A stretch of DNA of 64,000 nt from an uncultured Chloroflexia bacterium (GTDB lineage Bacteria; Chloroflexota; Limnocylindria; QHBO01). Under the pieces are notes generated by a model that was not told where the DNA came from, made no database searches, and was given only the letters and a program-made list of their open reading frames with translations. Location of the stretch: the NCBI GenBank assembly GCA_963840145.1, contig CAWIXR010000001.1, positions 42,327 to 106,326 of the forward strand, given 5' to 3'. Position 1 is the first letter of the stretch; every line of letters begins with the position of its first letter. Shown here in pieces: positions 9,210 to 55,100 of the stretch. The position numbers were made by a program, and so were the translations under genes.

Positions 9210-9286
9210 TGGTGGGCGATACTGGATTCGAACCAGTGACCTCACGGATGTGAACCGTGCACTCTAACCAGCTGAGCTAATCGCCC
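9210..9286 (-). tRNA. tRNA-Val (anticodon CAC)
   Basis: Reverse complement folds as a cloverleaf: GGGCGAUUAGCUCAGCUGGUUAGAGUGCACGGUUCACAUCCGUGAGGUCACUGGUUCGAAUCCAGUAUCGCCCACCA. Anticodon loop UUCACAU; CCA is encoded. Confidence 0.9.
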
Positions 9287-11866: not shown

Positions 11867-11920
11867 TTTTCCACATCCGGGCACGGAGTTATCCACACTG
11901 CGGCATCTGAGCGTGGATAG
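11867..11920. promoter_or_regulatory. DnaA-box cluster in the ftsA-ftsZ spacer: TTTTCCACA (11867-11875), perfect TTATCCACA (11889-11897), and inverted weaker CTATCCACG (complement 11912-11920)
   Basis: Matches the E. coli TTWTNCACA consensus. Lies upstream of ftsZ. Confidence 0.45.
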
Positions 11921-28338: not shown

Positions 28339-28688
28339 GTCCCTGGAGAGCGGCCTGTAAGCCGAGTTCTGTCGTGAGCCGATGGATCGCCAATCGGTCA
28401 CGGACGGTCATCCATCTGTGCGACCTACCCGGGAGCTGAGCGAGCAACCTGCTGCGGCCGAAGCCGCCTTGCGCTCCCCTATTCGGTCTTGCTCCGGCTA
28501 GAGCTTGCCGCGTTTCACTCCCGCCGGCCCGGCCTCGTTGGCTGGGGGCGGGCATCGTCACTGTGGCGCTATTCCTCGCCTCACGGCGGACGGGCGTTAC
28601 CCGCTAGCCTGCTCTGAGGAGCTCGGACTTTCCTCGGACGCGGCCTTTCGACCGATGCGCCCGCGACCATCCGGCCGCCTCCAGGGAG
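28339..28688 (-). ncRNA. rnpB: RNase P RNA, bacterial type A
   Basis: Minus-strand RNA contains GAGGAAAGUCCGAGCUCC (P4 5' strand), GGGUAACGCCCG, GGGAGUGAAA, and ACAGAACUCGGCUUACAGG (P4 3' strand with compensatory CCGAG/CUCGG). P1 pairs CCCUGGAGGCGGCC…GGCCGCUCUCCAGGG. Confidence 0.9.
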
Positions 28689-32583: not shown

Positions 32584-33591
32584 CTATCGCGCCAACCGGG
32601 CCGCCACCGCCTCGGCGAACTCGCGGGTGCCTGCGGCCCCGCCCAGATCGTAGGTCACCGTCGTGCCCTCGGCGATCACGTCGCGAGTGGCCGTCTCGAC
32701 GGCGTCGGCCGCATCGGTTTCGCCGAGGTGGCGCAGCATCAGCGCGCCGGACAGGATCAGTGCGGTGGGGTTCGCCTTGTTCTGGCCCGCGTACTTCGGG
32801 GCCGATCCGTGGACGGGCTCGAAGACGGCCGCCTTCTCGCCGATGTTCGCCCCCGGCGCGACTCCCAGCCCGCCGACGAGCCCGGCCGCCAAGTCGCTGA
32901 CGATGTCGCCGTAGAGGTTCGGAAGGACGAGCACGTCGTAGAGCTCGGGCTTCTGGACGAGCTGCATGCACATGTTGTCGACGATGCGGTCCTCGAACTC
33001 GACTCTGCCCGCGTACTCCGTGGCGACCTGCTGGCAGCTCTCGAGGAAGAGGCCGTCCGACAGCTTCATGATGTTCGCCTTGTGCACCGCGGTGACCTTG
33101 CGCCGGCCGTTCTTGACGGCGTACTCGAAGGCGTAGCGCGCGATCCGCTGCGACGCAGCGCGGGTGATGATCTTGATGCTCTCGGCCGCGTCCGGTCCGA
33201 CACGGTGCTCGATCCCCGCGTACAGGTCCTCGGTGTTCTCGCGGACGATGATCAGGTCGACGTCCTCGTAGCGACTCTCGACGCCGGCCATCGTGCGCGC
33301 GGGCCGGACGTTGGCATACAGCTCGAGCGCCTGGCGCAGGCCGACGTTGACGGAGCGGAACCCGGAGCCGACGGGCGTCGTGATCGGTCCCTTCAGAGCG
33401 ATGCTGTTGGCGCGAATGGACTCGAGCACCCGCTCCGGCAGCGGCGTTCCCTCGCTGGCGATCGTCGCCTCGCCGGCCTCCTGGACATCCCACTCGAAGC
33501 CGATGCCGGTCGCCTCCAGCACCCTCCTGGCCGCCACGGCCAGCTCTGGACCGATCCCGTCCCCGGGGATCAGCGTGACGGTGTAGCTCAC
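32584..33591 (-). CDS. icd: isocitrate dehydrogenase, NAD-dependent type (isocitrate/isopropylmalate dehydrogenase family)
   Basis: [16 protein letters not shown]…, …[19 protein letters not shown]… Start taken at the GTG preceded by GAGGTGAT; the track ORF extends to 33663. TCA-cycle context argues for IDH rather than LeuB. Confidence 0.8.
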
Positions 33592-33696
33592 CGGGTGATC
33601 ACCTCGCGTGGGGCCGGTCAAAGCGCCGGCGTACGGTTCCCGAGTGTAGCGGTCCGTGGGCATTGGCCTGCGAGTCGCCGGGGTCGGCGACCCTGT

Positions 33697-33815
33697 GTTG
33701 CGCCGAGTGCAACCAAGTGCGAAGGAAAGGCCGCTCGTTCAACCTGGGTTGCGTCCGGTGCACCACGCGTCGAAGGAACGACCGTTCGCTCGGAATTGGT
33801 TGCACCGCATGCAAC
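33697..33815. promoter_or_regulatory. Three palindromic sites GTTGC-N7-GCAAC, 51 bp apart (33697-33713, 33748-33764, 33799-33815), each within a degenerate ~51-bp repeat unit, in the icd/sucC divergent promoter region. The third site lies next to a -10-like TAGAAT (33841-33846).
   Basis: Read directly: GTTGCgccgagtGCAAC, GTTGCgtccggtGCACC, GTTGCaccgcatGCAAC. Confidence 0.55.
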
Positions 33816-33886
33816 TCTCGGGGTCGGGCACGAACCCCGCTAGAATCGGGCTCCCCGAGTCATTCCGTTCAGAGGAGCCTGCCGGC

Positions 33887-35027
33887 GTGAAGCTCCAGGA
33901 GTATCGGTCCAAGGAGATCCTCGCCCGTCACGGCGTCCCGCTGACCGCCGGCGAGACGGCGACGACGCCGGCGGACGCGCGCGCCGCGGCCGAGCGGATC
34001 GGCGGCCCGGTGGTGATCAAGGCCCAGGTGCTCGTCGGCGGCCGCGGCAAGGCCGGCGGCGTGAAGGTCGCGCAGACGCCGGCCGAGGCGGAAGAGCGGG
34101 CGCGCGAGATCATCGGCCTCGACATCAAGGGCACGACCGTGAAGACCGTGCTCGTCGCGCCGGCGGCGAAGATCGCAAAGGAGTTCTACCTCGGGCCTGA
34201 TCCTCGACCGCGCGGCGAAGGCGATCACCGTGATCGCGAGCGCCGAGGGCGGCGTCGAGATCGAGGAGACGGCGCGGACGAACCCCGAGGCGATCCTGCG
34301 GCTGTCGCTGCACCCGCTCATCGGCCTCCAGGAGCACGAGGTGCGGCGCATCGGCTTCTTCCTGGGCATCCCGGCCGAGCTGCGCAAGGACTTCGCATCG
34401 ATGATGCGCGGGCTGTACCGGGCCTTCGTCGAGTCCGACGCCGACCTCGCCGAGATCAACCCGCTGGTCCTGACCGATGCGGGCCAGCTCGAGGCCCTCG
34501 ACGCGAAGATCGTGCTCGACGACTCGGCGCTCCCCCGCCACCCCGACCTGGAGGAAATGCGCGACCTCAACGAGGAGGAGCCATCCGAGATCGCGGCGCG
34601 CGAGGCGGGCATCAGCTTCATCAAGCTCGACGGGTCCATCGGCTGCATGGTCAACGGTGCCGGCCTGGCGATGACGACGATGGACCTCGTCAAGCTGGCC
34701 GGCGGCGAGCCCGCGAACTTCCTCGACATCGGCGGTGGCGCCAAGGCCGATCGGGTGGCCGCGGCCTTCAAGATCATCCTCGACGATCAGAACGTGAAGG
34801 CCATCCTCATCAACATCTTCGGCGGCATCACCCGCGGCGACGAGGTCGCCCGCGGCATCGTCGAGGCCCGCTCGAAGCTCACGCGCGATGTGCCGATGGT
34901 CGTCCGCATCGTCGGCACGAACGCCGAAGAGGCGAAGCCGATCCTCGCGAAGGCGAACCTCATCACCGCCGACTCGCTCGACGACGCGGCGGCCAAGGCG
35001 GTGGCTGCGGTCGGGGGTGCGGCGTGA
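33887..35027 (+). CDS. sucC: succinyl-CoA synthetase (ADP-forming) beta subunit, interrupted by a 1-nt frameshift in the GGG run at 34193-34195
   Basis: N-terminus [19 protein letters not shown]…AKEFYLG is in frame 2. The continuation [25 protein letters not shown]… through the C-terminus is in frame 0. Deleting one G restores a full-length SucC. GTG start is preceded by AGAGGAG. Confidence 0.85.
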
Positions 35028-35905
35028 GCATCCTCGTCAACCGCGACACCCGGCTGCTGGTCCAGGGCATCACCGGTCGCGAGGGCGAGTTCCACTCGAC
35101 GGCGATGCTCGAGTACGGCACGGACATCGTGGCCGGCGTGACGCCCGGCAAGGGCGGGCAGTCGGCGCTGGACGGTCGCGTGCCGGTGTTCGACACCGTG
35201 GCCGATGCGGTCGCCCAGACCGGCGCGAACGCCTCGTGCATCTTCGTCCCGGCGGCCTTCGCCCCCGACGCGATGCTCGAGGCGGCGGACGCGGGCGTCC
35301 CGCTGGTCGTCTGCATCACCGAGGGCGTCCCCGCGCTCGACATGCTCACCGTCTACCACGTGCTGCGCGCGAAGGGCGTGCGGCTGATCGGCCCGAACTG
35401 CCCGGGGCTGACCTCGGTCGGCGAGGCCAAGGTCGGGATCATCCCCGGCAACATCCACGCGCGCGGGCCGGTCGGCCTGGTGTCCCGTTCCGGGACGCTG
35501 ACCTACGAGGTCGTCCAGGCCATGACCGATGCGGGCATGGGCCAGACGACGACCCTCGGGATCGGCGGCGACCCGATCGTCGGCACGAGCTTCATCGACG
35601 CCCTCGACCTCTTCAACCAGGACCCCGAGACCGAGGCGATCGTGATGATCGGCGAGATCGGCGGCGAGGAGGAGGAGAAGGCGGCGGCCTTCGTTGCCCG
35701 CGAGGTGCGCAAGCCGATGGCCGCCTTCATCGCCGGCCGCACCGCCCCGCCCGGACGGCGGATGGGCCACGCCGGGGCGATCATCTCGACCACTGGCGGC
35801 GGGACCGCCGAGTCGAAGCGGGCCGCGCTCGAGGAGGCCGGCGTGCGCGTCGCCGACTCGCCTTCGCAGATCCCGCAGCTGCTGCGAGACGCCGGCGTCG
35901 GCTAG
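35024..35905 (+). CDS. sucD: succinyl-CoA synthetase alpha subunit
   Basis: [21 protein letters not shown]…, with the CoA-binding and phosphohistidine regions. GTGA overlap with the sucC stop. Confidence 0.93.
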
Positions 35906-35974
35906 GCGGTCGGGCTGCGCCCCGACTGGCGGATCCGCGCGGTCCGCGCCATCAGCAGCTCGAAACCGCATCCA

Positions 35975-36397
35975 TCAGGGCCGCTCCTGCACGTCGAGCA
36001 GCTCCCAGAGGACGCCGTTGAGCGAGCGCGGGTGGACGAAGGCGACCGTGCCATGGGCTCCGGGCCGCGGCTCGCGATCGATCAGCTCGGCCTCGGCGGC
36101 GGCCAGCGCCTCGAGCGAGGCCGGCAGGTCATCGGTCAGGAAGCAGACATGGTGGACGCCCTCGCCATGAGTGGCGAGGTAGCGGGCGACGCCGCCCTCG
36201 TCGTCGATCGGCTCGACCAGCTCGATCCGCGCCGACGGATCGGGGCCGGTCGGCAGGAAGACGAGGCGCACGCGCTGGGGAGCGAACGTCATCGGCGGCC
36301 CCTCTGGCTCGAGGCCGAATAGCTCCCGGTAGCGGGGCAGCGCCTCGTCGATCGAGCGGACGACGATCGCGACGTGATGGATCGGCCCGATGCTCAC
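35975..36397 (-). CDS. mce: methylmalonyl-CoA epimerase (VOC/glyoxalase fold)
   Basis: [28 protein letters not shown]…[12 protein letters not shown]… GTG start overlaps the mutase TGA stop. Confidence 0.75.
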
Positions 36398-37995
36398 GGG
36401 CGGTGCTCGCCCCACACGCCGCGCAGCGCGGTGGCGATCTCGCCGAGAGTGACGTCCGCCTCGACGGCGGTGCGGATGCGGGGCAGGACGTTCTCGGTGC
36501 CGGTCGCCGCGGAGGTCAGCGCGGCCAGGGCGGCGTCGGCGGCGGCCCGGTCGCGTCGCGCGCGGACGGCTCGCGTCCGCTCGACCTGCTGCTCCTCGAG
36601 CTCGGGGTCGATCGCCTGCGGGGCCGGGCGCTGCTCGTCACCCTCGTCGGCGAATGCGTTGACGCCGACGATGACCCGCTCCCCGGCCTCGATCGCCCGC
36701 TGTACCGCGTACGCCGCGTCGCCGATCGCATCGGGCTGGTAGCCGGCCTCCAGCGCGACGAGCGTGCCGCCGAGCTCGTCGATGTGCGCCAGCTCGGCGA
36801 CGGCGCCGGCGAAGATCGTCTCGGTCAGGGTCTCGACGTAGTACGAGCCCGCCAGCGGGTCGACGGTCGCTGCGACGCCGGCCTCGTGATACAGCACTTG
36901 TTGTGTTCGGAGGGCGAGGCGGGCAGTCGCCGGCGTGGGTAGGCCGAGCGCCTCGTCCAGGGCATTCGTGTGCAGCGACTGCGTCCCGCCGAGGACCGCG
37001 GCCAGCGCCTGGACGGTCGTGCGCACGACGTTGACGTCCGGCTGCTGCGCGGTGAGCGTCGAGCCGCCGGTCTGGACGTGGAATCGCATCGCCAGGCTCT
37101 TTGGATCCTTCGCCCCGAACCTGTCGCGGGCGACGGTCGCCCAGGTGCGCCGAGCGGCGCGAAACTTCGCGACCTCCTCGAGCAGGTCGCCGTGGGCGGC
37201 GAAGAAGAAGGAGAGGCGCGGCGCGAAGTCGTCGAAGGCCATCCCGGCGGCCAGCGCCGCATCGGCATAGGCGATCGCGTTGGCGACCGTGAAGGCAACC
37301 TCCTGGATCGCCGTGGATCCCGCCTCGCGCATGTGGTAGCCGCTGATGCTGATCGTGTTCCATGCCGGCAGCTCAGTGCGGCAGTAGGCGAAGGTGTCGG
37401 TCACCAGGCGCATCGAAGGGCCGGGCGGGAAGATGTAGGTGCCCCGCGCGATGTACTCCTTGAGGACGTCGTTCTGGATCGTCCCACGAAGCCGATGCGG
37501 GTCGACGCCGCGGCGGCGCGCCACCGTCTCGTACAGCATCAGCAGGATCGCGGCGGTGGCGTTGATCGTCATCGAGGTGGAGACCTCGCCCGGGTCGATC
37601 CCGTCGAGGAGCAGCTCCATGTCGTCGATCGAGTCGATCGGCACCCCGGTCCGCCCCACCTCGCCGACCGCCATCGGGTCGTCGGAGTCGTACCCCATCT
37701 GGGTCGGCAGGTCGAAGGCGACCGACAGGCCGGTCTGGCCGCTGGCGAGGAGGTAGCGGAAGCGGCGGTTCGTCTCCTCGGCCGAGCCGAAGCCGGCGTA
37801 CTGGCGCATCGTCCACGGCCGGCCCCGATAGCCGTCCGGCCGAATGCCGCGGGTATACGGGAACGCGCCGGGCTCTCCCAGCGCGGCCGCCGGATCGAAG
37901 TCGGTGAGGTCCGCCGGGCCATAGACCGGCTCGATCTCGATGCCGGACGCGGACCGATGCGGACGGCGCCGCTCCGGCGCGTCGGGCTCGCTCAT
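36394..37995 (-). CDS. methylmalonyl-CoA mutase large subunit, catalytic (TIM-barrel) domain only; no B12-binding domain
   Basis: …[61 protein letters not shown]… The 533-aa product ends before any B12-binding domain. Confidence 0.88.
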
Positions 37996-38017
37996 CGGCC
38001 TCCGATTGTAGCCGTGC

Positions 38018-38482
38018 CTATTCGAGCCGCAGCAGCCCCGCGCCCGTGGCGACGGTCTGGCCGGGGACGACCTCGACCTCGATGACGCGGCCGTCGCGCG
38101 GGGCGCGAACCTCGTTCTGCATCTTCATCGCCTCGATCGTGAGCAGTGGTTGGCCGTCGGTCACCTCGTCGCCGGCGGCCACCCCGACGGTAACGATCAG
38201 CCCGGGCAGGGTCGCGCGCACTTCGACCGGGCCGGAGTGGGTGCGCGCCTCGGTCTCGGCCTCGGCCAGGACCCGCTCCCGCCAGGAACGGACGGTGACG
38301 GGGATCCGACGGCCACGAAGAGTCACCGTCCAGTCAGTCCCCTGTCCTTCCACAAGGACAGGCAGCGAGCGCTCGCCGTCGGACAGGCGGGCCACGCCGT
38401 GGGCGCGGTCGATCCAGTCGAGCCGCCAGCCATCCGGCGTGGGAATTGGCTCACCGTCGACGCGAGTCTCGAGTTCGCTCAC
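38018..38482 (-). CDS. biotin carboxyl carrier / biotin-requiring subunit (separate gene)
   Basis: 154 aa. C-terminal biotinyl domain ends …[29 protein letters not shown]…. GTG start overlaps the TGA of the upstream biotin carboxylase (GTGA). Confidence 0.75.
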
Positions 38483-39999
38483 TCGCGCAGTCCCTCGCGC
38501 CGGCCGAGCTCGCCCCAGGCCGAGCCGCGTTCCGGGACGGCGGCCCAACCGGATCGGGCGCTGGCGCGTCGCGCGGTCGTCGCCGCGACGGCCGACAACG
38601 CGCGATCCTCGTCGGTGAGCGATGGACCGTTCCCCCATCGGTCGGCGATGAGGCCGGTGTCGTAATCGCCGGCGACGAATGCCGCGTCGTCGACGAGCCA
38701 GCGCAGGAATCCGGCATCGGTCTGGAGCCCGCCGATCTGCGTCTCGTCGAGCGCTCGGCGCAGGCGGTCGATGGCGCTCGGCCGGTCGTCGGCGTGGACC
38801 ATCAGCTTGGCAAGCAGCGGGTCGTACTCGGGCCGCAGGTCCGTATCGCCCTCGATGCCCGCGTCGACGCGCACGCCCGGCCCCGACGGCATCACCCAGG
38901 CACCGATGCGTCCGGCGGTCGGTCGGAAGCCGTCGTACGGATCCTCGGCGTAGAGGCGGACCTCGATTGCGTGCCCGCGGCGCGGGGCATCCAGCACCTC
39001 GGGCGTCAGCCGCTCTCCTGCCGCGATGCGAATCTGCCACGCGACAAGGTCGAGTCCGGTGGTGAGCTCGGTGACGCCGTGCTCGACCTGGAGGCGAGTG
39101 TTCATCTCGAGGAAGTAGTGGCTGCCGTCGGCGACGAGGAACTCGACGGTGGCCGCGTTGTGGAACTCGACGGTTCCGGCGACGCGGCGCGCGGAGTCGA
39201 ACAGGGCCTCGCGCAGCGCGTTGTCCACCGCCGGTGACGGGGACTCCTCGACGAGCTTCTGGTGGCGGCGCTGGACGGAGCAGTCGCGCTCCCCGAGGAC
39301 GGCGAGGTTTCCGTGCCGGTCGCCGAGCAGCTGGACCTCGACGTGCCGGGCGGGGGCGACGAGGCGCTCGACGTAGATCGTGCCGTCGCCGAACGCCGCC
39401 TCGGCCTCTCGGCGCGCGGCCTCCATCGCCGGCCGCAGTTCTTCCGCTCCATCGACGCGGCGCATGCCTCGGCCGCCGCCGCCCGCCGCGGCCTTCAGCA
39501 TCACCGGATAGCCGATGTCGCCGACCGCGTCGACGTCGTCCTCCAGCGCGACCGTCGTGCCCGGAACGATCGGGACCCCCGCCTCGGCTGCCGACCGGCG
39601 CGCGGCCAGCTTGTTGCCGAGGGCCTCGAGGGCGGACGGCGGCGGGCCGACGAAGGCGATGCCCGCCGACTCGACTGCGCGCGCGAACGCCGCATCCTCG
39701 CTGAGGAACCCGTAGCCGGGATGGATCGCTTCGGCGCCACTCCGTTTCGCCGCCGCGATCACGGCGTCGACCGACAGGTACGAATCGCGCGCGGCGGGCG
39801 GGCCGATCCGCTCCGACCGGTCCGCCAGCCGGACGTGCAGCGCGTCGGCATCGGCGTCGGAATGAATCGCGATCGGCGAGATGCCCAGCTCCCGGCACGC
39901 GCGAATCACGCGGATCGCGATCTCGCCACGGTTCGCGATCAGCAGCCGCCCAAACGGCGGTCCTGCGGTGTCCGTGCGCAAAGACGCCGGGTCGCTCAA
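38479..39999 (-). CDS. accC: biotin carboxylase (acyl-CoA carboxylase alpha, BC domain only)
   Basis: …RLLIANRGEIAIRVIRACRELGI…, ATP-grasp motifs, …LEMNTRLQVEHGVTE… TTG start overlaps the pccB TGA. The track ORF's extra N-terminus is pccB in the wrong frame. Confidence 0.9.
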   Translation of the reverse strand: MSDPASLRTDTAGPPFGRLLIANRGEIAIRVIRACRELGISPIAIHSDADADALHVRLADRSERIGPPAARDSYLSVDAVIAAAKRSGAEAIHPGYGFLSEDAAFARAVESAGIAFVGPPPSALEALGNKLAARRSAAEAGVPIVPGTTVALEDDVDAVGDIGYPVMLKAAAGGGGRGMRRVDGAEELRPAMEAARREAEAAFGDGTIYVERLVAPARHVEVQLLGDRHGNLAVLGERDCSVQRRHQKLVEESPSPAVDNALREALFDSARRVAGTVEFHNAATVEFLVADGSHYFLEMNTRLQVEHGVTELTTGLDLVAWQIRIAAGERLTPEVLDAPRRGHAIEVRLYAEDPYDGFRPTAGRIGAWVMPSGPGVRVDAGIEGDTDLRPEYDPLLAKLMVHADDRPSAIDRLRRALDETQIGGLQTDAGFLRWLVDDAAFVAGDYDTGLIADRWGNGPSLTDEDRALSAVAATTARRASARSGWAAVPERGSAWGELGRREGLRE

Positions 40000-41546
40000 A
40001 GCGGGATGTTGCCGTGCTTCTTCGGCGGCAGCGACTGGCGCTTGTTCTCCAGCATCGCCAGCGCACCGACAACTCGCGCGCGCGACTCGGACGGCTGGAT
40101 GACTTCGTCGACGTAGCCGCGCGCCGCGGCGATGTACGGATTCGCGAATCGTTCCTCGTACTCGGCGACGAGACGGGCGCGTTCCGCATCGGCGTCCTCG
40201 GCCTCGGCGATTCGGTCGCGGAAGATGATGTTCACCGCACCCTCGACGCCCATCACCGCGATCTCGGCCGTCGGCCAGGCAAAGTTCATGTCGCCGCGCA
40301 CATGCTTGCTGCTCATGACGTCGTACGCGCCGCCATACGCCTTGCGCGTGATGATCGTGACCTTTGGGACCGTCGCCTCGCAATAGGCGTACAGCAGCTT
40401 CGCGCCGTGCCGGATGATGCCGCGATGCTCCTGGTCGACGCCGGGCAGGAAGCCTGGCACGTCGACGAGTGTCAGCAGCGGCACGTTGAACGCGTCGCAG
40501 GTGCGAACGAATCGCGCGGCCTTGTCGGACGCGTCGATGTCGAGAACCCCGGCAAGCACCTCCGGCTGCTGCGCGACGATGCCCACGCTGCGGCCCTCGA
40601 TCCGCGCGAAGCCGCAGACGATGTTTCGCGCGAAGTGCTCATGGACTTCGGTGAACGAACCGCGGTCGACGATCCCGGCGATGACCGAGTGCATGTCGTA
40701 CGACTGCTTGGCGGAATCGGGGATCAACGCGTCGAGCGAGGCACCGTCATTCGATGGCGCCTCCCACTCCGCCCGCCGTGGCGTCAGGTCGACGTTGTTC
40801 TGCGGCAGGTAGCCGATCAACGTTCGCGCCAGCTCGAGCGCCTGCGGCTCACCCGGCGCGAGAAAGTGCGCGACGCCGCTTGACTCGTTGTGGACTCGCG
40901 CGCCGCCGAGCCCCTCGAAGTCGATCTCCTCGTGCGTCACCGTCTTCACCACGTTCGGCCCGGTGACGAACATGTAGCTCGTTCCCTCGACCATGACGAC
41001 GAGATCGGTGATGGCCGGCGAGTAGACCGCGCCGCCAGCGCATGGCCCCATCACCAGTGACAGCTGCGGTACGACACCGGACGCCAGGGTGTTGCGCAGG
41101 AAGATGTCGGCATAGCCGCCGAGGCTGACGACACCTTCCTGGATGCGCGCACCTCCGGAGTCGGAGAGGCCGATGATCGGCGCGCCGTTCTCCATCGCCA
41201 GGTCCATGACCTTGCAGATCTTCTCGGCGTGCGCCTCGGACAGCGAGCCGCCGAACACGGTGAAGTCCTGGCTGTACACAAAGACGAGCCGATCGTCGAT
41301 GCGACCGTAGCCGGTGACGACGCCGTCACCGAGATAGCGTTCCTCGTCGAGCCCGAACTCGCTGGCGCGATGCGTCACGAACGCATCGATTTCGGTGAAG
41401 CTGTCCTCGTCGAGCAGGAGGTCGAGCCGTTCGCGCGCCGAGAGCTTGCCGCGCGCGTGCTGCTGGTCGAGCCGTTTCGCTCCCCCACCCTGTCGCGCCT
41501 CCGTGCGCAATGTCGCCAGTCGCTGCAGCTTGTCGGCCGTCGACAC
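39996..41546 (-). CDS. pccB: propionyl-CoA carboxylase beta subunit / methylmalonyl-CoA carboxyltransferase
   Basis: Carboxyltransferase N- and C-halves (…GGARIQEG…, …RKAYGGAYDVM…). Start taken at the GTG preceded by AAGGAG. The track ORF's N-terminus (…VAQWLEQPAHNRTVAGSIPAG…) is actually a translated tRNA gene. Confidence 0.92.
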   Translation of the reverse strand: MSTADKLQRLATLRTEARQGGGAKRLDQQHARGKLSARERLDLLLDEDSFTEIDAFVTHRASEFGLDEERYLGDGVVTGYGRIDDRLVFVYSQDFTVFGGSLSEAHAEKICKVMDLAMENGAPIIGLSDSGGARIQEGVVSLGGYADIFLRNTLASGVVPQLSLVMGPCAGGAVYSPAITDLVVMVEGTSYMFVTGPNVVKTVTHEEIDFEGLGGARVHNESSGVAHFLAPGEPQALELARTLIGYLPQNNVDLTPRRAEWEAPSNDGASLDALIPDSAKQSYDMHSVIAGIVDRGSFTEVHEHFARNIVCGFARIEGRSVGIVAQQPEVLAGVLDIDASDKAARFVRTCDAFNVPLLTLVDVPGFLPGVDQEHRGIIRHGAKLLYAYCEATVPKVTIITRKAYGGAYDVMSSKHVRGDMNFAWPTAEIAVMGVEGAVNIIFRDRIAEAEDADAERARLVAEYEERFANPYIAAARGYVDEVIQPSESRARVVGALAMLENKRQSLPPKKHGNIPL

Positions 41547-41575
41547 GCAAGCACTCCTTCGCGTGATCGGTGGTG

Positions 41576-41648
41576 TGGGCCCGGCAGGAATCGAACCTGC
41601 GACCGTCCGGTTATGAGCCGGTTGCTCTAACCATTGAGCTACGGGCCC
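41576..41648 (-). tRNA. tRNA-Met (anticodon CAT); elongator-like, although an Ile-lysidine tRNA cannot be excluded
   Basis: Reverse complement: GGGCCCGUAGCUCAAUGGUUAGAGCAACCGGCUCAUAACCGGACGGUCGCAGGUUCGAUUCCUGCCGGGCCCA. G1-C72 is paired, so it is not an initiator. The 3' CCA is not encoded in register. Confidence 0.85.
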
Positions 41649-41720
41649 GCGAGCAAGACGGTGGACAAGTCCGAGTATAGACGGATGTCTTTGCACAACG
41701 ACATCGACATTTCTCCACGT

Positions 41721-41729
41721 TGTGGATAA
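41721..41729 (-). promoter_or_regulatory. Perfect DnaA box (TTATCCACA on the minus strand), 80 bp upstream of parA
   Basis: Read directly on the plus strand as tgtggataa. Confidence 0.4.
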
Positions 41730-41807
41730 CCCGGATGCCCGTTTCGGGGTCGAGCGCCTATCATCGGTTTCGTTCCTCCCGCCCCTGTCGCACGGAAGGT
41801 GTTGCGT

Positions 41808-42574
41808 TGACCAAGGTCATATCGATCGCGAATCAGAAGGGCGGTGTGGGCAAGACCACCTGCTCCATCAACCTGGGCGGCGCATTGGCGGAACGCGGTT
41901 ACCGCGTCCTCTGCGTCGACATGGATCCGCAGGCAAATCTCACCGTCGGCCTGGGCGTTTCCCTCTCGGACGTGCGCGTGTCGATGGCCGACGTCCTCTC
42001 CGACGATCGCGTTGGTCTTGACGAGATCGTCCGCGAGACCGAGACGCAGGGTCTGTGGGTCGCACCCGCAACGCTCGAGCTCGCGTCGACCGAGGTCGAG
42101 CTGTTCACCGCCATCGGCCGCGAGATGGTGCTTCGCGACGCGCTGGACGGCTGGGCGGACCGCCAATTCGACGTCGTCATCATCGACTGCCCGCCGACGC
42201 TCGGTCTGCTGACCATCAACTCGCTGGTGGCGTCGAACCGCGTGATCATCCCGGTGCAGACGCAGTACTACGCGATCAAGGGCCTGACCGCGCTCATCAA
42301 GGTCATCAACACGATCAAGATCAAGCTGAACCACGACCTCGAGGTGCTCGGCCTGCTGCCGACCTTCTTCGACGGCCGCACGGTGCTCGCCCGCGAGATG
42401 CTCGCCAACCTCAAGCAGCTCGGCGATCACCGGGTCTTCAACACGATGATCAAGCAGACGGTGAAGCTCGGCGAGGCGCCGCTCACCGGCAAGCCGGTCA
42501 CCGAGTACGCGACGAACTCATCGGCCGCCCGCGCATTCCGTGACCTGGCACAGGAGGTGATCGAGCTTGGGTAG
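41808..42574 (+). CDS. parA: chromosome partitioning ATPase ParA/Soj
   Basis: Starts at the TTG after GGAAGGTG; KGGVGKTT deviant Walker A. Confidence 0.9.
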
Positions 42575-43565
42575 CAAGGGTCCCGCATTCCGGGAGAACA
42601 TCCACCGACTCTTCGACGAGGCCCAGGCGACCGACCTCGCCCCGGGCATCGTGTCGCTCATCGAGTCACGCGGCACACACGCGCAGATCCGCGAGGTGCC
42701 GGTCAGCAAGATCCTGCCGAACCCGGCGCAGCCGCGGCTCTCCTACGACGAGGAATCGCTGACCGAGCTGGCCGACTCGATCAGAGAGCACGGCGTTCTC
42801 CAGCCGATCCTCGTGCGGCCCAGCGGCTCGAAGTTCGAGCTCATCGCCGGGGAGCGGCGCTGGCGCGCGTCGACAATGGCCGAGCGCGAGACGATCCCCG
42901 CAATCGTCGCCGAGTTCGACGACCAGACCGCGCTCGAGGTCAGCATCATCGAGAACCTCCAGCGCGAGGACGTCTCGCCGCTCGAGGAGGCGGTGATGTT
43001 CCGCAAGATGACCGAGACATTCGGCTATTCGCTGCGCCAGCTGGCGCAGAAGGTCGGCAAGGACAAGGGGTACATCGAGAACCGGCTGCGCCTTACCGAT
43101 GCGCCTGCCGACGTCCGCGAGCTCGTGTCCGTGCGCAAGGACACGATCAGCCACGCCTACGAGCTGATGAAGATCGGCGACGAGCGAAAGCGTCGACGGC
43201 TCGAGAAGCGGATCATCGCCGGCGAACTGTCGCTGGCCAAGCTACGGCTGATCACCGGCACGACCGGCCATCCCGAGGAAGAGAACGGTCACGCCGAGCA
43301 CAAGCCGCGACGACGGGCGAAGACCGCGGCCGGGCGCGCGGCCGAGGTGCGGGCCGCGGACGATGCGCTGATGGGCGCTCGCTCGAAGCTCGCCGAGGGC
43401 ATCGATGACCTCGTCGACATCCTCCGCCAGCCGGAGCTCATGGAGCAGATTCCCGAGGTCAACCGGGCGAACTTCGCGAAGCACCTCACGATCACGAAGC
43501 TCAAGATCGAGAACGCGATCGCGATCATCCGCGCCGGGACGCCCGCATCAGCCGAGGGCGAGTGA
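42567..43565 (+). CDS. parB: chromosome partitioning protein ParB/Spo0J
   Basis: ParB N-terminal domain (…LQPILVRPSGSKFELIAGERRWRAS…) and HTH region. Start overlaps the parA stop. Confidence 0.9.
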   Translation: MGSKGPAFRENIHRLFDEAQATDLAPGIVSLIESRGTHAQIREVPVSKILPNPAQPRLSYDEESLTELADSIREHGVLQPILVRPSGSKFELIAGERRWRASTMAERETIPAIVAEFDDQTALEVSIIENLQREDVSPLEEAVMFRKMTETFGYSLRQLAQKVGKDKGYIENRLRLTDAPADVRELVSVRKDTISHAYELMKIGDERKRRRLEKRIIAGELSLAKLRLITGTTGHPEEENGHAEHKPRRRAKTAAGRAAEVRAADDALMGARSKLAEGIDDLVDILRQPELMEQIPEVNRANFAKHLTITKLKIENAIAIIRAGTPASAEGE

Positions 43566-46308: not shown

Positions 46309-46384
46309 TGGCTCCGGCGGTAGGACTCGAACCTACGACCAAGTGATTAACAGTCACCCGCTCTACCAACTGAGCTACGCCGGA
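46309..46384 (-). tRNA. tRNA-Asn (anticodon GTT)
   Basis: Reverse complement: UCCGGCGUAGCUCAGUUGGUAGAGCGGGUGACUGUUAAUCACUUGGUCGUAGGUUCGAGUCCUACCGCCGGAGCCA. CCA is encoded. Confidence 0.9.
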
Positions 46385-49118: not shown

Positions 49119-52100
49119 GTGATCGTCCGGGAGCTCCTCCGCCGTGCAGGAACGTCCCCTACCGCGGCACTGGAGGTCGGGGCTGATTCGAGCTGCCTGC
49201 TTTCCGATTGCGGGCGCCCGCTGACTTCGGCTGACGACAGCTACTGCAGCCGAGCCTGTCTGCGGCGCGCGGGTCGCATCGCGCAGGCCGCCGAGCTGGC
49301 GGGACAGAGCTGCGCCAGGGACGGCTGCGAGAACCTCTTCGACGCCCGCACGAGCGGTCACCGCTTCTGCAGCAGCGCGTGTGGGATCGAGGCCCGCCGG
49401 ACCGATCGGGCACCATGGACCCACGGCCTGACGGCCGCCCCCACTCGCCTTCCCGCCAACATCCCAGCCCCCGGCCTCGTCGCCGGGGGCGTTGCACGTC
49501 TCGGCCGCGGCGCGACGCAGGTCGGTGCCGCGATCGCCGCGGGGACGGCCGCCATTGCGCGGCCCATCCGATCGGGCGTCTCGCGCGCCGGCACCGTCCT
49601 CGTTGCGGCCACGCGTCCGGTCCGGGCCGGGGTCAGTCGCGCACTGGGCCCGATTGCCCGGCGCCTCGAGCCGGTGGTGAGCCCGGTGCGCCGGTGGCTC
49701 GGAGCCCTGTACGCCAGGACGGCGCCGGCCAGGGCCGTCATCGGCCGACCACTCAGCCTTGCATGGCGCCGCACACCGCGGCGCGTTCGTGTGCCTGGCG
49801 CCCTTCTCGTCGCGACCGCATCGGTCATGGTGCTCGTGCTCTCCTTCGCGGCCGCGTCGGACTTCACCGTCAACGACACGAGCGACCGCGTCGACGCGGT
49901 CGTCGGCAATGGCGTCTGCGACGTCAACACCAGCACGTCCGGCAGCCAGTGCACCCTGCGCGCCGCCATCCAGGAGGCGAATGCGCACCCCGGCCACGAC
50001 AAGATCACGATCGAGCCGGGCCTCTACCAGCTCGCGATCCCGCCGATCAACGAGAACGCCGCGAACGTCGGCGACTTCGAGCTCCTCGACACGGTGACCA
50101 TCGAGAAGCAATGGTTCACCCTCGGCGACGTCATCATCGACGGCGGCAATCCCCTGCCGAGCGCGCCGGTCATCGCCCGCGGCATCGACCGCCTCTTCGA
50201 GGTCCACCCCGGCGCCGGTGACGTCACCATGCGCGACGTCACCCTCCAGAACGGCTTCAGCCCCGAAGAGGGCGGCGCGATCCAGAACTGGTCGCTCGGC
50301 AAGCTGACCCTCGACGGCGTGACAGTCCGCGACAACTTCGCCGAGAAGGCCGGCGGCGGCCTCAACCATGGCGACCTCAACGACTACGAGTGGGCCACCG
50401 ATCCGCCGAACCTCGACCTGCTGCCCCACGGGCGCGTCGAGGTCATCGACTCGTTCTTCACCGGCAACGGCTCGGCCGGCGGCAGCGGTGCCGCCATCAA
50501 CAACGTGTCGGGCGGCACGATCACGATCACCGGCAGCACGTTCACCCTGAACCCCGGCGCGATCATGCCGGACCCGCTCGACCCTGAGGAGTTCCTCCTC
50601 GTCGACCCGGCCGACTACCCGCTCGACGCCAGCACGATCGCCAACCAGGCCCGCTGGGAGAAGGTCGGCACGCTGCGGATCAGCAACTCGACGATCTCGC
50701 TGAACGCGGCCGAGGGCAACGGCGCCGGCATCCTCAACGAGGGCGACAGCATCGTCGAGCTCGCGAACGTCGTCCTGACCCAGAACCGCACCGGCGCCAG
50801 CGGCGGCGGCCTCTACACCGAGGGCGGCAAGGTCACGATCACCGGCGGCACGGTCTCAAAGAACCAGGCGGCGAACGGCGGCGGCCTCTACGGCGGCGGC
50901 CATGTCTCGCAGTTCGGCCTCCGCGGGACGTTCACGTTGTCGGGCGTCCAGGTCGCCGACAATATCGCCGAGAACGGCGGCGGCCTGTACAACGACGGCG
51001 ACGCCCACATGGTCGTGACCAACACGACCTTCGCGCGCAACCACTCGTCCGACCACGGCGGCGCGCTCGTCAGCGATGGCCGCGCCAGCCTTCTGCTCAG
51101 CCACGTCACGGTCACGGCCAACACCTCGAACGGCGAGGGCGGCGGCATCTGGCTGCACAGCGAGCGGATGCAGACGATCGCCGACTCGACGGTCACGCTC
51201 AACAGGGCGGGCGTCCCGGTCGTCGAGGAGGACGGCACGCTGAGCGACGACATCGCCGGCGGTGGCGGCATCCACACCGATGGCGGCCCGACGACGATCC
51301 TGCGCACCCTCATCGACAGCAACGAGGCGAATGATGAGGGCGGCGGACTCAGCCTCAACAACGCGGGCGACCTCCTGATCGCGGACAGCACGATCTCGAA
51401 CAACCGGGCATTCGACGGCGGCGGCATGGAGAACAGCGCTCGGGAGGTGACCTTCGAGCGGCTCACGGTCACCGGCAACCGTGCGGCCTCGGCCGGCGGC
51501 GGCATCCACAACACCTCGAGCGGCGAGTTCTTCATCCTCGACACGACGGTCCGCGGCAACACCGCCCAGATCGGCGGCGGGCTTGCCAACGCGCCGGACA
51601 ACAGGATCACGATCCGCGGCTCGCTCTTCCTCAATAACACGGCGCGCCTGGGGACGCCCGGCGAGGACGGCGAGCTGCCCGAGGAGGCCGGCTACGGCGG
51701 CGGCATCATGAGCTACGCCGACGGCGACTCGCTCATCGAGAACACCACGATCTCCGGCAACAAGGCCGCGGTGGCCGGCGGCGGCCTGTTCCACGACGCC
51801 GACGGCGAGCTGCGCATCGTGCACACCACGGTCTGGCGCAACTCGGCGCCGGCCGGCGGCGGCATCGGCGTCAAGGAATCCGACTTCGTGCCCGACATCC
51901 CGCCGAAGACGAACGAGGCCGTCGTCCTGAAGAACTCGATCGTCGGCGGCAGCATCCGCGGCGGCAACTGCGACTGGTACATCCGGTCGGAGGGCGGCAA
52001 CCTCGAGAGTGGCGGCGTCAACACCTGCTTCCTGGCCGTCACCCACGAGACGGCGCAGAGCCCGATTGAGCTCGGCGTCCGCGACCGCCGCGGCGACCCG

Positions 52101-55100
52101 AAGCTGCTGGCCATCGCCGACAACGGCGGGCCGACCCTGACCCACGCGCTCCTGTACGGCAGCCTCGCCATCGACTCGAGCCCCGAGCCGTGCTCGGTCG
52201 ACGACCAGCGCGGCGTCGAGCGCCCCGCGCCGAACGACACGGTCCATGACGAGATGAACCGATGCGACGCCGGCGCCTACGAGTTCGTCGGTCCGCCGCC
52301 GCCGTACGACAACGTCGCCCCCGAGACGATCTTCAACTACCCCGAGGACGGTCCTGTCCAGGATTCCCTCGAGACGATGGCGTTCACCTTCCGCGGCGAG
52401 GATCCCGCGGTCGACGCGAACAACGTCCCGGTCAACTTCACCTCGCCCGATGAGCTGAACTTCGAGTGCCGCTTCCTCGAGATCGAGCTGACCGAGGAGC
52501 CCGAGCCCGTTCCGCCGTGGGAGCCGACGCCGCCCGAGGAGATGTGGAACGGCTGCTCGAGCCCGTGGTCCGTGCCGCTGACCGAGGAAGGTCTCTTCCG
52601 CCTGGAGATCCGGGCGATCGACCGCGCCGACAACATGGACGAGACGCCGGTCAGCGTGATCATCAGCGACGTCGGCCTGGAGCCGCCCGACACCCAGATC
52701 GTCGAGGCGCCCGGCCTGACCCCCGGCACCGTCGTGCCGCCCGCTCCGGCGGAGACGCCGCAGACCAACAGCCGCGCCGCACTGTTCAGCTTCCGCGCGG
52801 TGAGCGACTTCACCCCGTCGCAGTTCGCCGAGTACGAGTGCCGCCTCGACAGCCGCGACCCGGAGCAGTGGCTCGAATGCTTCAACCCCGTGATGTACTC
52901 CGACCTGACCACGGGCCTGCACACCTTCGAGGTGCGCGCCATCGGCACCGAGCTCGGCGGCCCCGATCCGACGCCGGCCCGGTACACCTGGCGCGTCGGC
53001 CCGGATCCGGCCGGCGGAGTGCCGTTCAGCTGCGATGAGGCGAACATCACCCTGACGCCCAACGCCGACGGCTGGGCGGACCAGGTCAACCCGCTCGAGA
53101 ACTACAAGTTCGAGACGGAGCTCGACGTCCGGTCCGAGGCCAATGTGCCCGAGTCCGGCCCGACCGAGCACCGGAACGCGCGGGCCTTCATCCGCTTCGC
53201 GCTCCAGGCTGACACCGACTGCGAGCTGCAGTCGGCCACGCTGCGCATGTTCTCCGAGGGCCACACCGAGGGACGAACCCTCGTCGCGGTTCCGCTCGCC
53301 GGGCCGTTCAAGGAGAGCACGCTCACCTGGGTCAGCGCGCCGCTCGAGGTCCCGGGCGCCGTCCCGGCGCCGGTCCCCGCGGGCGAGGGCTATCGCGACT
53401 TCGACGTCACCGACCACGTGAGGGACATCCTCGCCGGCACACTGGTGAACCATGGCTGGCTCATCCGCGACGCGGTGGAGTCCGATCCCGAGGGCGGCGA
53501 CCAGACCTTCGCGTCACGCGAGCTGCCACAGGATCCGCCGGAGATCACCCTGCCTGAGCTCGAGCTGCGCTTCGCGCCGGTCGCAAGCCCGCCGCCGGCC
53601 GAGCGTGACCAGACGCTCGTCGACAAGTACGTCGAGTGCGGTGAGGTCATCACCGAGAGCGTTCGGCTCCTGGGCGACGTGACCGGCTGCCTCACCGAGG
53701 GCATCGCCATCGGCGCCCCGAACATCATCCTCGACCTGAACGGCAAGATCGTCTCGAGCGGCTTCATCCTTGAGCCGGGCGAGGAGGACAACCTCACGCC
53801 GGGCATCCGCAGCGGATACCCGAACGTCGAGATCCGCAACGGCACCGTCACGAACTTCGGCTACGGCATCCTGCTCGGTCCTGGGTCGGTGCACAGCGAA
53901 GTCCACCACATGACCCTGACCCGCAACGCCCTGACCGGCCTGCAGCTGTTCGACGCCGATAACGGGCGCCTCGGCAACACGGTCCGCGACAGCACGTTCG
54001 ACTCGAACGGCGAGACGGGCCTGCAGCTGATGAGCGGCACCGAGGGCAGCCTCATCGAGAACAACTTCTTCATCAGCAACGGGATGTCGATCCACCTCTT
54101 CGACTCCCACCGCAACACGATCCGCAACAACACGATCAGCGGGATCATCCTCGACCCGACCCTCGACTCCGACGCCGGAATCGTGGTCGAGAACGGCTCG
54201 CGCGATAACGTCCTGATCGACAACGACGTCAGCGAAACCGGTGACGCCGGCATTGTCATCCACCAGGGCTCGCACGGGAACACCGTCGTCGGCGGCATCC
54301 TCGTCCGGAACGGCGACGCCGGCGTGATCGTCCAGGATTCGGACCGCATCACGGTCGACGGCGTCCTCGCCCACCAGCAGTCGGACGGCGGCGTCGTGCT
54401 GTCGAACTCGAGCAACAGCGTCGTCAAGAACAGCGACCTGGGCTACAACCCCTCCGGCGTCGACGCATCGGGCGTGAACAACCTGCTCGTCTACAACAAC
54501 GACGTGTCGCACTCGCTCCAGGCCGGCATCGAGCTCGGCGAGGGTGTGAACATGGTCGTCACCTGCAACACGGCCAACCTGAGCGGCGGCAGCGGCATCT
54601 CGATCGAGGGCGCCACGTTCGACTCGCTGGGCGTCGCCGTCGGCGGCGCCCTGGTCACGGGCAACACGGCCAACGAGAACGCCGAGTCCGGCCTCTCGAT
54701 CGCCGTCGGCCGCCACCGGGTCGGTGGTCCGGTCATCTGCCCGGGTGGCGAGGTCATCGGCAACAACGCGAACAACAACGCCGGCTACGGCATCGACGCC
54801 GGCGAGGACCCCGTTCCGGGCGAGCCGCTCGACCCGAACCGCAACATCGACGGCGGCGGGAACCGCGCGAGCGGCAACCACGCCGACGTCGGCGTGGCCG
54901 TCGGCCTGCCGGACGCCATCCAGTGCGTGGGCGTGGTCTGCGCCGCCGGCGACGACGTGCCGATGACGCCTGAGGACCTCACCGCGCCCGAGACGATCCT
55001 TCTCGCCGGCCCGGTCGGCTCGATCCTTCCGCTGCCCGCGGGCGTTTCCACGAACAGCGAGCGCGCCGTCTTCGAGTTCACCGGCAACGACGGCCCGCAG

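Follow-up and report, generated by a model that had tools for sequence, protein, structure and literature searches.

Why do three evenly spaced palindromes lie between two divergent operons of central metabolism, and do they form a conserved control site? In the present study, this question was addressed in a window of 64,000 nucleotides (the whole stretch of DNA that was analysed; 70% G+C) from a MAG of 'Candidatus Limnocylindria' (Chloroflexota), whose SucC is 78-93% identical to that of 80 GTDB Limnocylindria species representatives. On one side of the array is idh, a gene of the NAD-type IDH family on the minus strand (32584-33591, start GTG at 33591), with sdhCDAB downstream of it. On the other side is sucC, which diverges from idh with its GTG at 33887 and is followed by sucD, so the setting between divergent idh-sdhCDAB and sucCD had been described correctly. 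Further out, a glyoxalase gene, methylmalonyl-CoA mutase, propionyl-CoA carboxylase subunits and parAB are located 3' of sucCD, and the RNase P RNA and the dcw cluster are located upstream of sdh.

The three 17-mers of the form GTTGC-N7-GCAAC were found exactly where the original prediction had placed them. The first palindrome (A1), GTTGCgccgagtGCAAC at 33697-33713, has perfect 5+5 arms and a 7-nt centre; the second (A2), GTTGCgtccggtGCACC at 33748-33764, carries one arm mismatch and is the symmetry centre of the whole module; and in the third (A3), GTTGCaccgcatGCAAC at 33799-33815, the arms are again perfect. The start-to-start distances from A1 to A2 and from A2 to A3 are 51 and 51 bp, and the predicted period is therefore exact. 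Only about 0.25 exact copies of the motif are expected per 619 kb of related DNA (~0.03 per 64 kb), hence the two exact copies of the window, 102 bp from each other, are far beyond chance. When up to one mismatch was allowed, the scan of the window gave 5 matches against 1.36 expected; the matches outside the array, at 4166 and 11705, are at the level of chance for a 64-kb window, and no further site beyond chance was seen there. The same intergenic region is present, save two single-base indels, in an independent ENA contig (L081/L271), thus the array is no assembly artefact. A literature search for the motif string found no mention of it. The additional proposal that all three sites lie on one face of the DNA is valid only as an approximation, because 51 bp corresponds to 4.86 and not 5 helical turns (at 10.5 bp per turn); each step is rotated by ~51 degrees, and the outer sites stand ~100 degrees apart.

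The array does not encode protein. Its GC3 is 0.54-0.74 in all six frames, compared with 0.82-0.94 in the genes of the window. A coding repeat, in which 51 bp would be 17 codons, was ruled out since these GC3 values are too low in the six frames. The two open reading frames that overlap the array, 33599-33814 on the minus strand and 33663-33890 on the plus strand, do exist, and by the same measure they are non-coding and had rightly been called spurious.

To see what is conserved at this locus, the intergenic regions of Limnocylindria were aligned. Their elements follow a constant order, namely the idh Shine-Dalgarno sequence, an 18-nt hairpin, the idh -10 box, an unconserved spacer and the sucC -10 box, and 3' of the latter there is a leader of 40-80 nt with an AGGAG Shine-Dalgarno sequence. 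The proposed sucC -10 box, TAGAAT at 33841-33846 (plus strand), 40 nt before the GTG, aligns with a TACAAT/TAGAAT box conserved across Limnocylindria (TACAAT in relatives) and is thereby confirmed. The third site had been said to abut this box, which is overstated, as the distance is 25 bp. The idh -10 box, TACACT at 33643-33648 on the minus strand (TAGACT in many relatives), is conserved in 66 of 68 loci, and its context CTA[C/G]ACT corresponds to window positions 33649-33643, minus strand. The hairpin of the idh leader, GCCGGCGCUUUGACCGGC at 33613-33630 (minus strand), is conserved and covarying; it is located outside the array and is the truly conserved element of the idh-sucC intergenic region. 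The aligned promoters of the Limnocylindria lineage share no conserved -35 element. Since the two conserved -10 boxes face outwards, the array lies 5' of both inferred transcription starts, which are at about 33853 on the plus strand (sucC) and about 33636 on the minus strand (idh). The centre of A3 is ~46 bp 5' of the inferred sucC start, and with it the site centres are at about -46, -97 and -148 from that start, and at -67, -118 and -169 from that of idh.

The array itself is not among the conserved elements. The original prediction had read it as a phased operator array of a LysR-like regulator that would define a central-carbon regulon, and one of the two outcomes that it had named as refuting was a lack of conservation in orthologous intergenic regions. 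We found idh upstream of sucC in 74 of 80 loci, in about 50 of which the intergenic region is merely 97-220 bp, and in none of the 80 GTDB species does GTTGC-N7-GCAAC, even with one mismatch, occur at the position of the array. Within 450 bp upstream of sucC, a one-mismatch match was obtained among the 80 species in L007 alone, at -280; it is inside the idh gene body (the intergenic region there has 152 bp) and at chance level. The palindrome is also missing from the six closest loci, whose IDH is 93-96% identical at the protein level. In 619 kb of relatives' DNA there are 0 copies of GTTGC-N7-GCAAC and 0 of TTGC-N7-GCAA, and blastn and nhmmer detected nothing similar to the module, either in the fetched loci (~2 Mb) or elsewhere in the window. 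The array is present solely in the contig L081/L271 of the same species, which has 97.3% DNA identity to the window over 21 kb. As the repeats are not conserved in the orthologous intergenic regions, the regulon-operator reading fails this test set by the original prediction itself, and it is not supported.

Between the window and L081 there are zero substitutions in the array, and both share three sites without a difference in copy number. These two strains are compared here within a tract of low divergence: the two sequences are nearly identical over ~5 kb (33.57-38.8 kb), the array being at the edge of this stretch, and the DNA around it carries ~4-14 mismatches per 300 bp and in some intervals more. 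For this reason, the zero substitutions are uninformative, and purifying selection on the array was ruled out as a conclusion from them.

The array occupies the sole freely variable part of the idh-sucC region, between the back-to-back -10-type promoters. In 39 loci the spacer between the two -10 boxes ranges from 12 to 308 nt, and lengths of 29-33 nt are the commonest. In the window it has 191 nt (33650-33840) and holds the entire array, and the segment 33650-33834 is species-specific, with no counterpart in any relative. Elsewhere the same spacer is filled by unrelated repeats, such as 8 bp in L067 (4 copies listed), 16 bp in L048 (4-5 copies) and a 20-bp duplication in L075, or by long palindromes (L071, L047 and L014). 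An array that occurs in one species within freely varying DNA therefore looks like a young repeat and not like a conserved switch.

The comparison with the nearest relatives further showed what takes the place of the array in them. In the search for IDH homologues, the best matches were at 100% (P0001) and 99% (L081/L271, the same species with the identical array), and the next closest loci were L082, L083, L281 and L282 (95-96% IDH), followed by L001 and L004. All six of the latter loci lack the palindrome and carry between sucC and idh a gene for a 543-aa protein with MFS_1 and cNMP_binding domains. The window is nested within this MFS-bearing clade, both in a neighbour-joining tree of idh and in the nearest-neighbour lists of idh and sucC, and its homology to the MFS-bearing relatives ends exactly at the two -10 boxes. 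Where these relatives have the MFS gene, the window has its repeat. The parsimonious explanation is that the species of the window lost a segment of ~1.7 kb with the MFS gene and has ~180 bp of novel, repeat-built DNA instead; this is an inference, because the presence of the MFS gene is patchy over the wider tree. The array is not a remnant of the lost gene, since no similarity between them was found, and a foreign origin of the sucC flank was ruled out, as both flanks have the same nearest relatives.

The internal structure of the segment was examined in the next place. The original prediction had embedded each palindrome in a degenerate repeat unit of ~51 bp. This describes the first two units well, which are alike at 32 of 51 positions (63%); unit 3 has the palindrome alone in common with the others (its spacer matches at 13 of 34 positions). 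The 34-nt spacers 1 and 2 match at 19 of 34 positions in direct comparison (P = 5e-4), and the agreement is still better, at 22 of 34 (P = 8e-6), when spacer 2 is reverse-complemented. Read head to tail, the segment holds 2.3 units of 51 bp, a unit length within the 40-100 bp of the tandem-repeat criterion, and Tandem Repeats Finder did not call the 51-bp repeat, which is below its threshold. Each spacer also contains a dyad of its own. The first (B1, 33721-33740), with GAAgGAaaGG and CCgcTCgTTC as its two halves, was read from the sequence and also came up as a direct repeat; its centre at 33730.5 is the exact midpoint of A1 and A2, and the self-complementarity of its spacer is 20/34. The second (B2, 33772-33791), likewise read from the sequence, includes GAACG-ac-CGTTC and is centred at 33781.5, the midpoint of A2 and A3. 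The segment is thus a string of dyads, one per ~25.5 bp. Together they form a long imperfect inverted repeat at 33707-33805, with 46-nt arms that are 72% complementary and 7 nt between them, and this inverted repeat has the best score in the 64-kb window. In nhmmer the module matches itself on the reverse strand with E = 5.8e-8, and its folding z-scores are -2.45 (DNA, plus strand) and -3.57 (RNA, minus strand). Both ends of the module bear small G+C hairpins, at 33681-33693 and at 33820-33838. On either side of the array there is one copy of the 9-bp direct repeat CGGGGTCGG, both in the plus orientation; the left copy (33679-33687) belongs to the small palindrome GGGTCGgCGACCC (33681-33693), and the right copy (33819-33827) overlaps the hairpin GGGGT-N9-ACCCC (33820-33838).

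On balance, the array is probably a repeat module of ~180 bp, palindromic and non-coding, which is young, confined to one species and situated in a hypervariable promoter spacer; we do not regard it as a conserved operator. In this best reading, its origin may be either local or mobile. The following course of events is proposed. The ancestor of the clade would have had the MFS/cNMP-binding gene between sucC and idh, and this gene would have gone in the species of the window. A hairpin-bearing unit of ~51 bp, composed of two half-periods of 25.5 bp (the GTTGC-N7-GCAAC dyad and the GAA..TTC dyad), may then have been duplicated in direct and/or inverted order, if replication slipped or switched templates at quasi-palindromes, or through a small insertion. 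The outcome would be three equally spaced palindromes together with one long imperfect hairpin. In such a course the equal spacing of 51 bp follows from the repeat unit, hence selection for helical phasing is not needed to account for it. At the DNA level, the module keeps the -10 boxes 191 bp apart, compared with ~30 bp in most relatives, and it places DNA that is prone to form cruciforms or hairpins 5' of the two promoters; a dedicated regulator would not be required. We infer both the mechanism of duplication and the absence of a regulatory function.

One property of the array would suit a protein-binding site. Identity is significantly higher in the palindrome arms than in the loops and spacers: in the inverted alignment 14 of 15 arm positions match, against 24 of 41 others (Fisher P = 0.012), and between sites 1 and 3 the corresponding counts are 10 of 10 and 17 of 41 (P = 7e-4), which fits sequence-specific recognition of the arms. 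A newly born operator was considered, in which a dimeric HTH regulator encoded elsewhere in the genome, with the Lrp/AsnC type as the best geometric fit, binds the three boxes cooperatively, wraps or loops ~120 bp and co-regulates idh-sdhCDAB and sucCD, the site having been multiplied by unit duplication. The three equally spaced dyads within ~119 bp, with a divergent promoter on either side and the module just upstream of both core promoters, are suitable for such a role, and the lack of a conserved -35 element in the lineage leaves room for upstream activators. However, the array is conserved in none of more than 80 related species, a second site is absent from the window and from 619 kb of relatives, and a candidate regulator gene is absent from the 64 kb. 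Altogether, we consider this operator rather doubtful, yet worth keeping in mind.

The candidate regulators were sought in the annotation. Among the ~50 ORFs annotated in the window or at the locus, no LysR, GntR, IclR, TetR, MarR or Lrp genes and no HTH_1 or LysR_substrate matches were present; the regulators found in the 64 kb comprise an ECF sigma factor, MraZ, ParB and an OmpR-type response regulator. In Bacillus, TCA genes are under the control of LysR-type regulators (LTTRs), CcpC for example, and the window resembles LTTR operators in its divergent promoter region and in the T-N11-A motif that can be read in GTTGC-N7-GCAAC. The T-N11-A geometry claimed by the original prediction is formally present (T3 and A15, 11 nt between them), but it discriminates poorly, as every 5-N7-5 palindrome in which these two places are T and A has it too, and the other hallmarks of LTTRs are missing. 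The RBS/ABS pair that LTTR operators have near -65/-35, about 2-3 turns apart, is absent, the window having three equal sites 51 bp apart, and the divergent genes are idh and sucC and not an LTTR gene, with no LysR-family gene in the 64 kb.

A closer likeness was found in an archaeal system. Ss-LrpB of Sulfolobus solfataricus, a member of the Lrp/AsnC family, binds three regularly spaced 15-bp boxes, TTGCAAAATTTGCAA, which have the form TTGC-N7-GCAA (PMC1802622). Three of its dimers wrap ~100 bp, and it activates a 2-oxoacid oxidoreductase operon (PMC1802622, PMC2995911, PMC4046817). The window array likewise has three similar, regularly spaced palindromic boxes in one control region; they share the half-site core and spacing (TTGC-N7-GCA(A/C) in the window, at a 51-bp period), so that the geometry of the Ss-LrpB operator recurs three times (PMC1802622), and the Ss-LrpB target also includes an oxidoreductase operon of central metabolism. 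This likeness may nevertheless be a coincidence, because it emerged after a comparison with many known motifs. The box centres of the window (gccgagt, gtccggt and accgcat) are G+C-rich, with 2-3 A/T of 7, whereas the Lrp box is A+T in its centre and an Lrp-type regulator needs this weak centre for bending (PMC1802622). The spacing of 51 bp, 4.86 turns, is non-integral, in contrast to the 2-3 turns reported for the family (PMC2995911). Ss-LrpB is autoregulating, but no lrp-like gene adjoins the window array, and the scanned ORFs of the window contain no AsnC/Lrp domain. The window also differs in being part of a high-GC bacterial genome and in its unconserved array. The more detailed version, in which a unit duplication after the loss of the MFS gene made three TTGC-N7-GCAA boxes and an Lrp/AsnC-like or other HTH dimer wraps ~120 bp and so couples idh-sdh and sucCD in one species, is in our view unlikely.

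The young repeat module could also have arrived from elsewhere. A MITE- or REPIN-like insertion, that is, a non-autonomous long-hairpin element of ~131-140 bp between the promoters that duplicated a 9-bp target, CGGGGTCGG, would agree with the long imperfect palindrome of the segment, with its species-specific presence in a spacer prone to insertions, and with the direct repeat that flanks the array at 33679-33687 and 33819-33827. The pair could possibly be a target-site duplication. By itself, however, a 9-bp repeat is not significant, as the chance of some such repeat in 190 bp of this base composition is estimated at ~0.2-0.3. When the 140 bp of 33688-33827 were removed as in an empty site, the leftover spacer was still unlike that of any relative. 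The 64-kb window and ~2 Mb of other loci yielded no further copy, not even a diverged one, the module has no plasmid or phage similarity, a GTAG-type REP head flanks none of the three hairpins, and no transposase, RAYT or Y1/HUH gene was seen among the window ORFs scanned. We hold such an insertion to be improbable. As a class, REP, BIME, REPIN and MITE elements resemble the module as short extragenic palindrome arrays with conserved arms, variable loops, a long-hairpin fold and lineage-specific occurrence. Unlike the elements of this class, the module is known at a single locus in the DNA covered here, is placed between divergent promoters and not downstream of genes, and has neither the GTAG head nor a RAYT or transposase gene seen in the window. 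With MIRU-like VNTRs the module has in common a tandem unit of ~51 bp, the intergenic position and the high-GC genome. It departs from them in that its units are 63% identical and present in 2.3 copies, it is not between co-directional genes of an operon, and the two strains compared show no difference in copy number.

The strong folding of the segment raises the question of whether it works as RNA. In this case a transcript of the array, be it a small RNA or a long leader that includes it, would act through its hairpins, for which the minus-strand RNA fold (z = -3.57) could speak. Low folding energy, though, is a trivial outcome of a DNA palindrome. The array is upstream of both inferred starts, with the -10 boxes pointing away, and no promoter-like or terminator-like consensus was seen inside the region. 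Rfam gave two sub-threshold chance matches in 33400-34000 and none at the gathering score in the intergenic region. There are no homologues, and therefore no covariation to examine. Such a structured RNA appears very improbable to us.

The three dyads were also compared with sites of an enhancer-binding protein, which would serve a sigma-54 promoter of the -24/-12 type, GGGCACG-N4-CCGCT at 33826-33841. This candidate matches TGGCACG-N4-TTGCW at 9 of 12 positions with the correct GG-N10-GC spacing, and the dyads are ~45-150 bp upstream of it. But GG-N10-GC is common in DNA of 70% G+C, and the candidate overlaps the conserved sigma-70-type -10 box TAGAAT, the -24/-12-like match itself being unconserved. 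In addition, no rpoN or AAA+ activator gene is present in the window, and the proximal site at about -46 is too near for a typical enhancer site. A sigma-54 system at this place is hardly credible.

Several other known kinds of repeats and sites were considered and rejected. A CRISPR array was ruled out, since the 17-bp repeats have variable centres, the spacers are alike and no cas gene is in the window. A parS or centromere site for the ParAB encoded 8-10 kb off does not apply, as there is no parS-like site and the palindrome length and half-site differ. Nor is it a replication origin, with no DnaA box near the array and the GC-skew change ~5 kb distant. The attC and lox-type recombination sites, considered from the sequence, did not fit.

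Pattern scans for palindrome arrays at 51 bp were also run on metagenome and viral contigs, and their matches at first suggested a widespread class. When GCAMC was allowed, the scans returned mostly collagen-like GGTGCA coding repeats, in which 51 bp is a period of 17 codons. True double or triple palindromes occur in L135, L140, L114, L249, L206 and others, with the 51-bp distance in L135, L140, L114 and L249, and those of L135 and L249 (metagenomes) are unrelated 51-bp tandem arrays with the same palindrome. In viral contigs, exact pairs at 51 bp were found at 3 loci, compared with 2 for the shuffled arms GCTTG/CAAGC and 7 for the same arms at 46 bp, and in nhmmer none of the metagenome or viral palindrome loci resembled the module of the window. 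A general class was thus rejected, because the control patterns match as often and no locus resembles the module; these unrelated sequences are background.

These results show that a striking periodic palindrome array between operons of central metabolism can be a repeat that is confined to one species and sited in a hypervariable spacer, and that phylogenetic footprinting should come before any regulon is inferred from such an array. As it stands, the array is of little importance for regulation. Should it prove to bind a protein, it would document with unusual clarity how an operator is born by duplication, and if a newly born operator were indeed present, the birth of a cis-regulatory module through repeat amplification would have been caught in the act. 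The comparison has also given a usable map of the conserved idh/sucC control region of Limnocylindria, with back-to-back -10 boxes, no conserved -35 element and a covarying idh-leader hairpin, and it has dated a small structural change in which a gene was replaced by a repeat.

In the present study, comparison of the Limnocylindria loci showed that the spacer between the two back-to-back -10 boxes (idh, 33643-33648, minus strand; sucC, TAGAAT, 33841-33846, plus strand), in which the palindrome array lies, is a hotspot of indels and repeats across the class. The contents of this spacer differ by lineage and include unrelated tandem repeats and long palindromes, as found in the compared loci L067 (1408-1451), L048 (3453-3537), L075, L071 (3793-3912), L047 (3866-3919) and L014 (3686-3822). 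Some of the long spacers fold unusually well, with z values of -3.7 and -4.3. In the closest relatives of the window, a 543-aa protein consisting of an MFS transporter fused to a cyclic-nucleotide-binding domain is encoded between sucC and idh (L082, 1290-2921; L083, 1284-2924; L281 and L282, 793-2424; also L001, L004, L016 and others). This fusion gene was found at that place in about 17 of 74 loci, and it is absent between sucC and idh in the species of the window.

Exact GTTGC-N7-GCAAC palindromes were also found in non-coding arrays of unrelated metagenomic or viral contigs. These include L140 (3072-3700; about 5.5 units of 112 bp with two different palindromes), L114 (34-275; a 164-bp unit with three palindrome types), and L135 (527-645) and L249 (13131-13250), both with 51-bp tandem units. 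In the pattern scans, control patterns were as frequent as these exact arrays, and the arrays of the unrelated contigs are therefore probably a mere background of hairpin-bearing tandem repeats.

The window was further compared with the same-species contig L271. A tract of about 5 kb (window ~33570-38800), which spans the intergenic region, sucCD, the glyoxalase gene and mcm, is nearly identical between them, against a divergence of about 3% between these strains elsewhere. On its left the tract ends at the idh start, adjoining the array. This pattern suggests that the repeat-bearing allele was taken in by recent recombination or by a local sweep. Within the tract, sucC of the window is frameshifted by one extra base at 34192 (beside the run GGGCC, 34193-34197); the same-species contig (L081/L271) is without this base and its sucC is intact, with 379 aa. 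The most likely source of the extra base is an indel error in the long-read assembly; several genes are split in L271 as well.

A sigma-54-like match, GGGCACG-N4-CCGCT (33826-33841), agrees with the -24/-12 consensus at 9 of 12 positions and has the correct GG-N10-GC spacing. Since this match coincides in part with the conserved sigma-70-type -10 and has no conserved counterpart in the compared relatives, it is probably due to chance.

Several other features were observed in the window. It carries a class A RNase P RNA (28341-28682, minus strand) and three tRNA genes, Val-CAC (9210-9286), Met-CAT (41575-41648) and Asn-GTT (46309-46384). Because the tRNA-Met gene falls within the 5' extension of a long ORF (39996-41696), the true start of this ORF must lie further downstream. 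The sign of the GC skew changes near 38-42 kb, and perfect DnaA boxes TTATCCACA are present at 11889 (plus strand; within the region 11867-11897) and at 41721-41729 (minus strand), the latter directly at the parA start. Although parAB is present (41720-43565), no parS-like site was found in the window with up to four mismatches allowed. On the minus strand, the region 50856-63215 holds four long ORFs (865, 757, 924 and 740 aa) without any Pfam match and an 81-bp tandem repeat (51715-51863), and its highest-GC3 frames are fragmented into many short pieces. There are two readings of these ORFs: repeat proteins of an unusual kind, or a stretch ridden with frameshifts.

The idh -10 box is followed, at a distance of about 13 nt, by an 18-nt hairpin GCCGGCGCUUUGACCGGC (33613-33630, minus-strand sense) that is conserved at the corresponding position in 66 of the 68 Limnocylindria loci aligned. 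Base pairing of the 5-bp stem is kept in 97.4% of the alignment cells, with covariation at the innermost pair (GC 51, AU 12, GU 3), and the 8-nt loop, CGC(U/G)(U/G)UGA, is almost invariant. Judged from this alignment, the truly conserved cis-element of the idh-sucC intergenic region is the leader hairpin, which probably serves in the control of idh-sdh, either as an RNA element of the leader or as a site for a protein.
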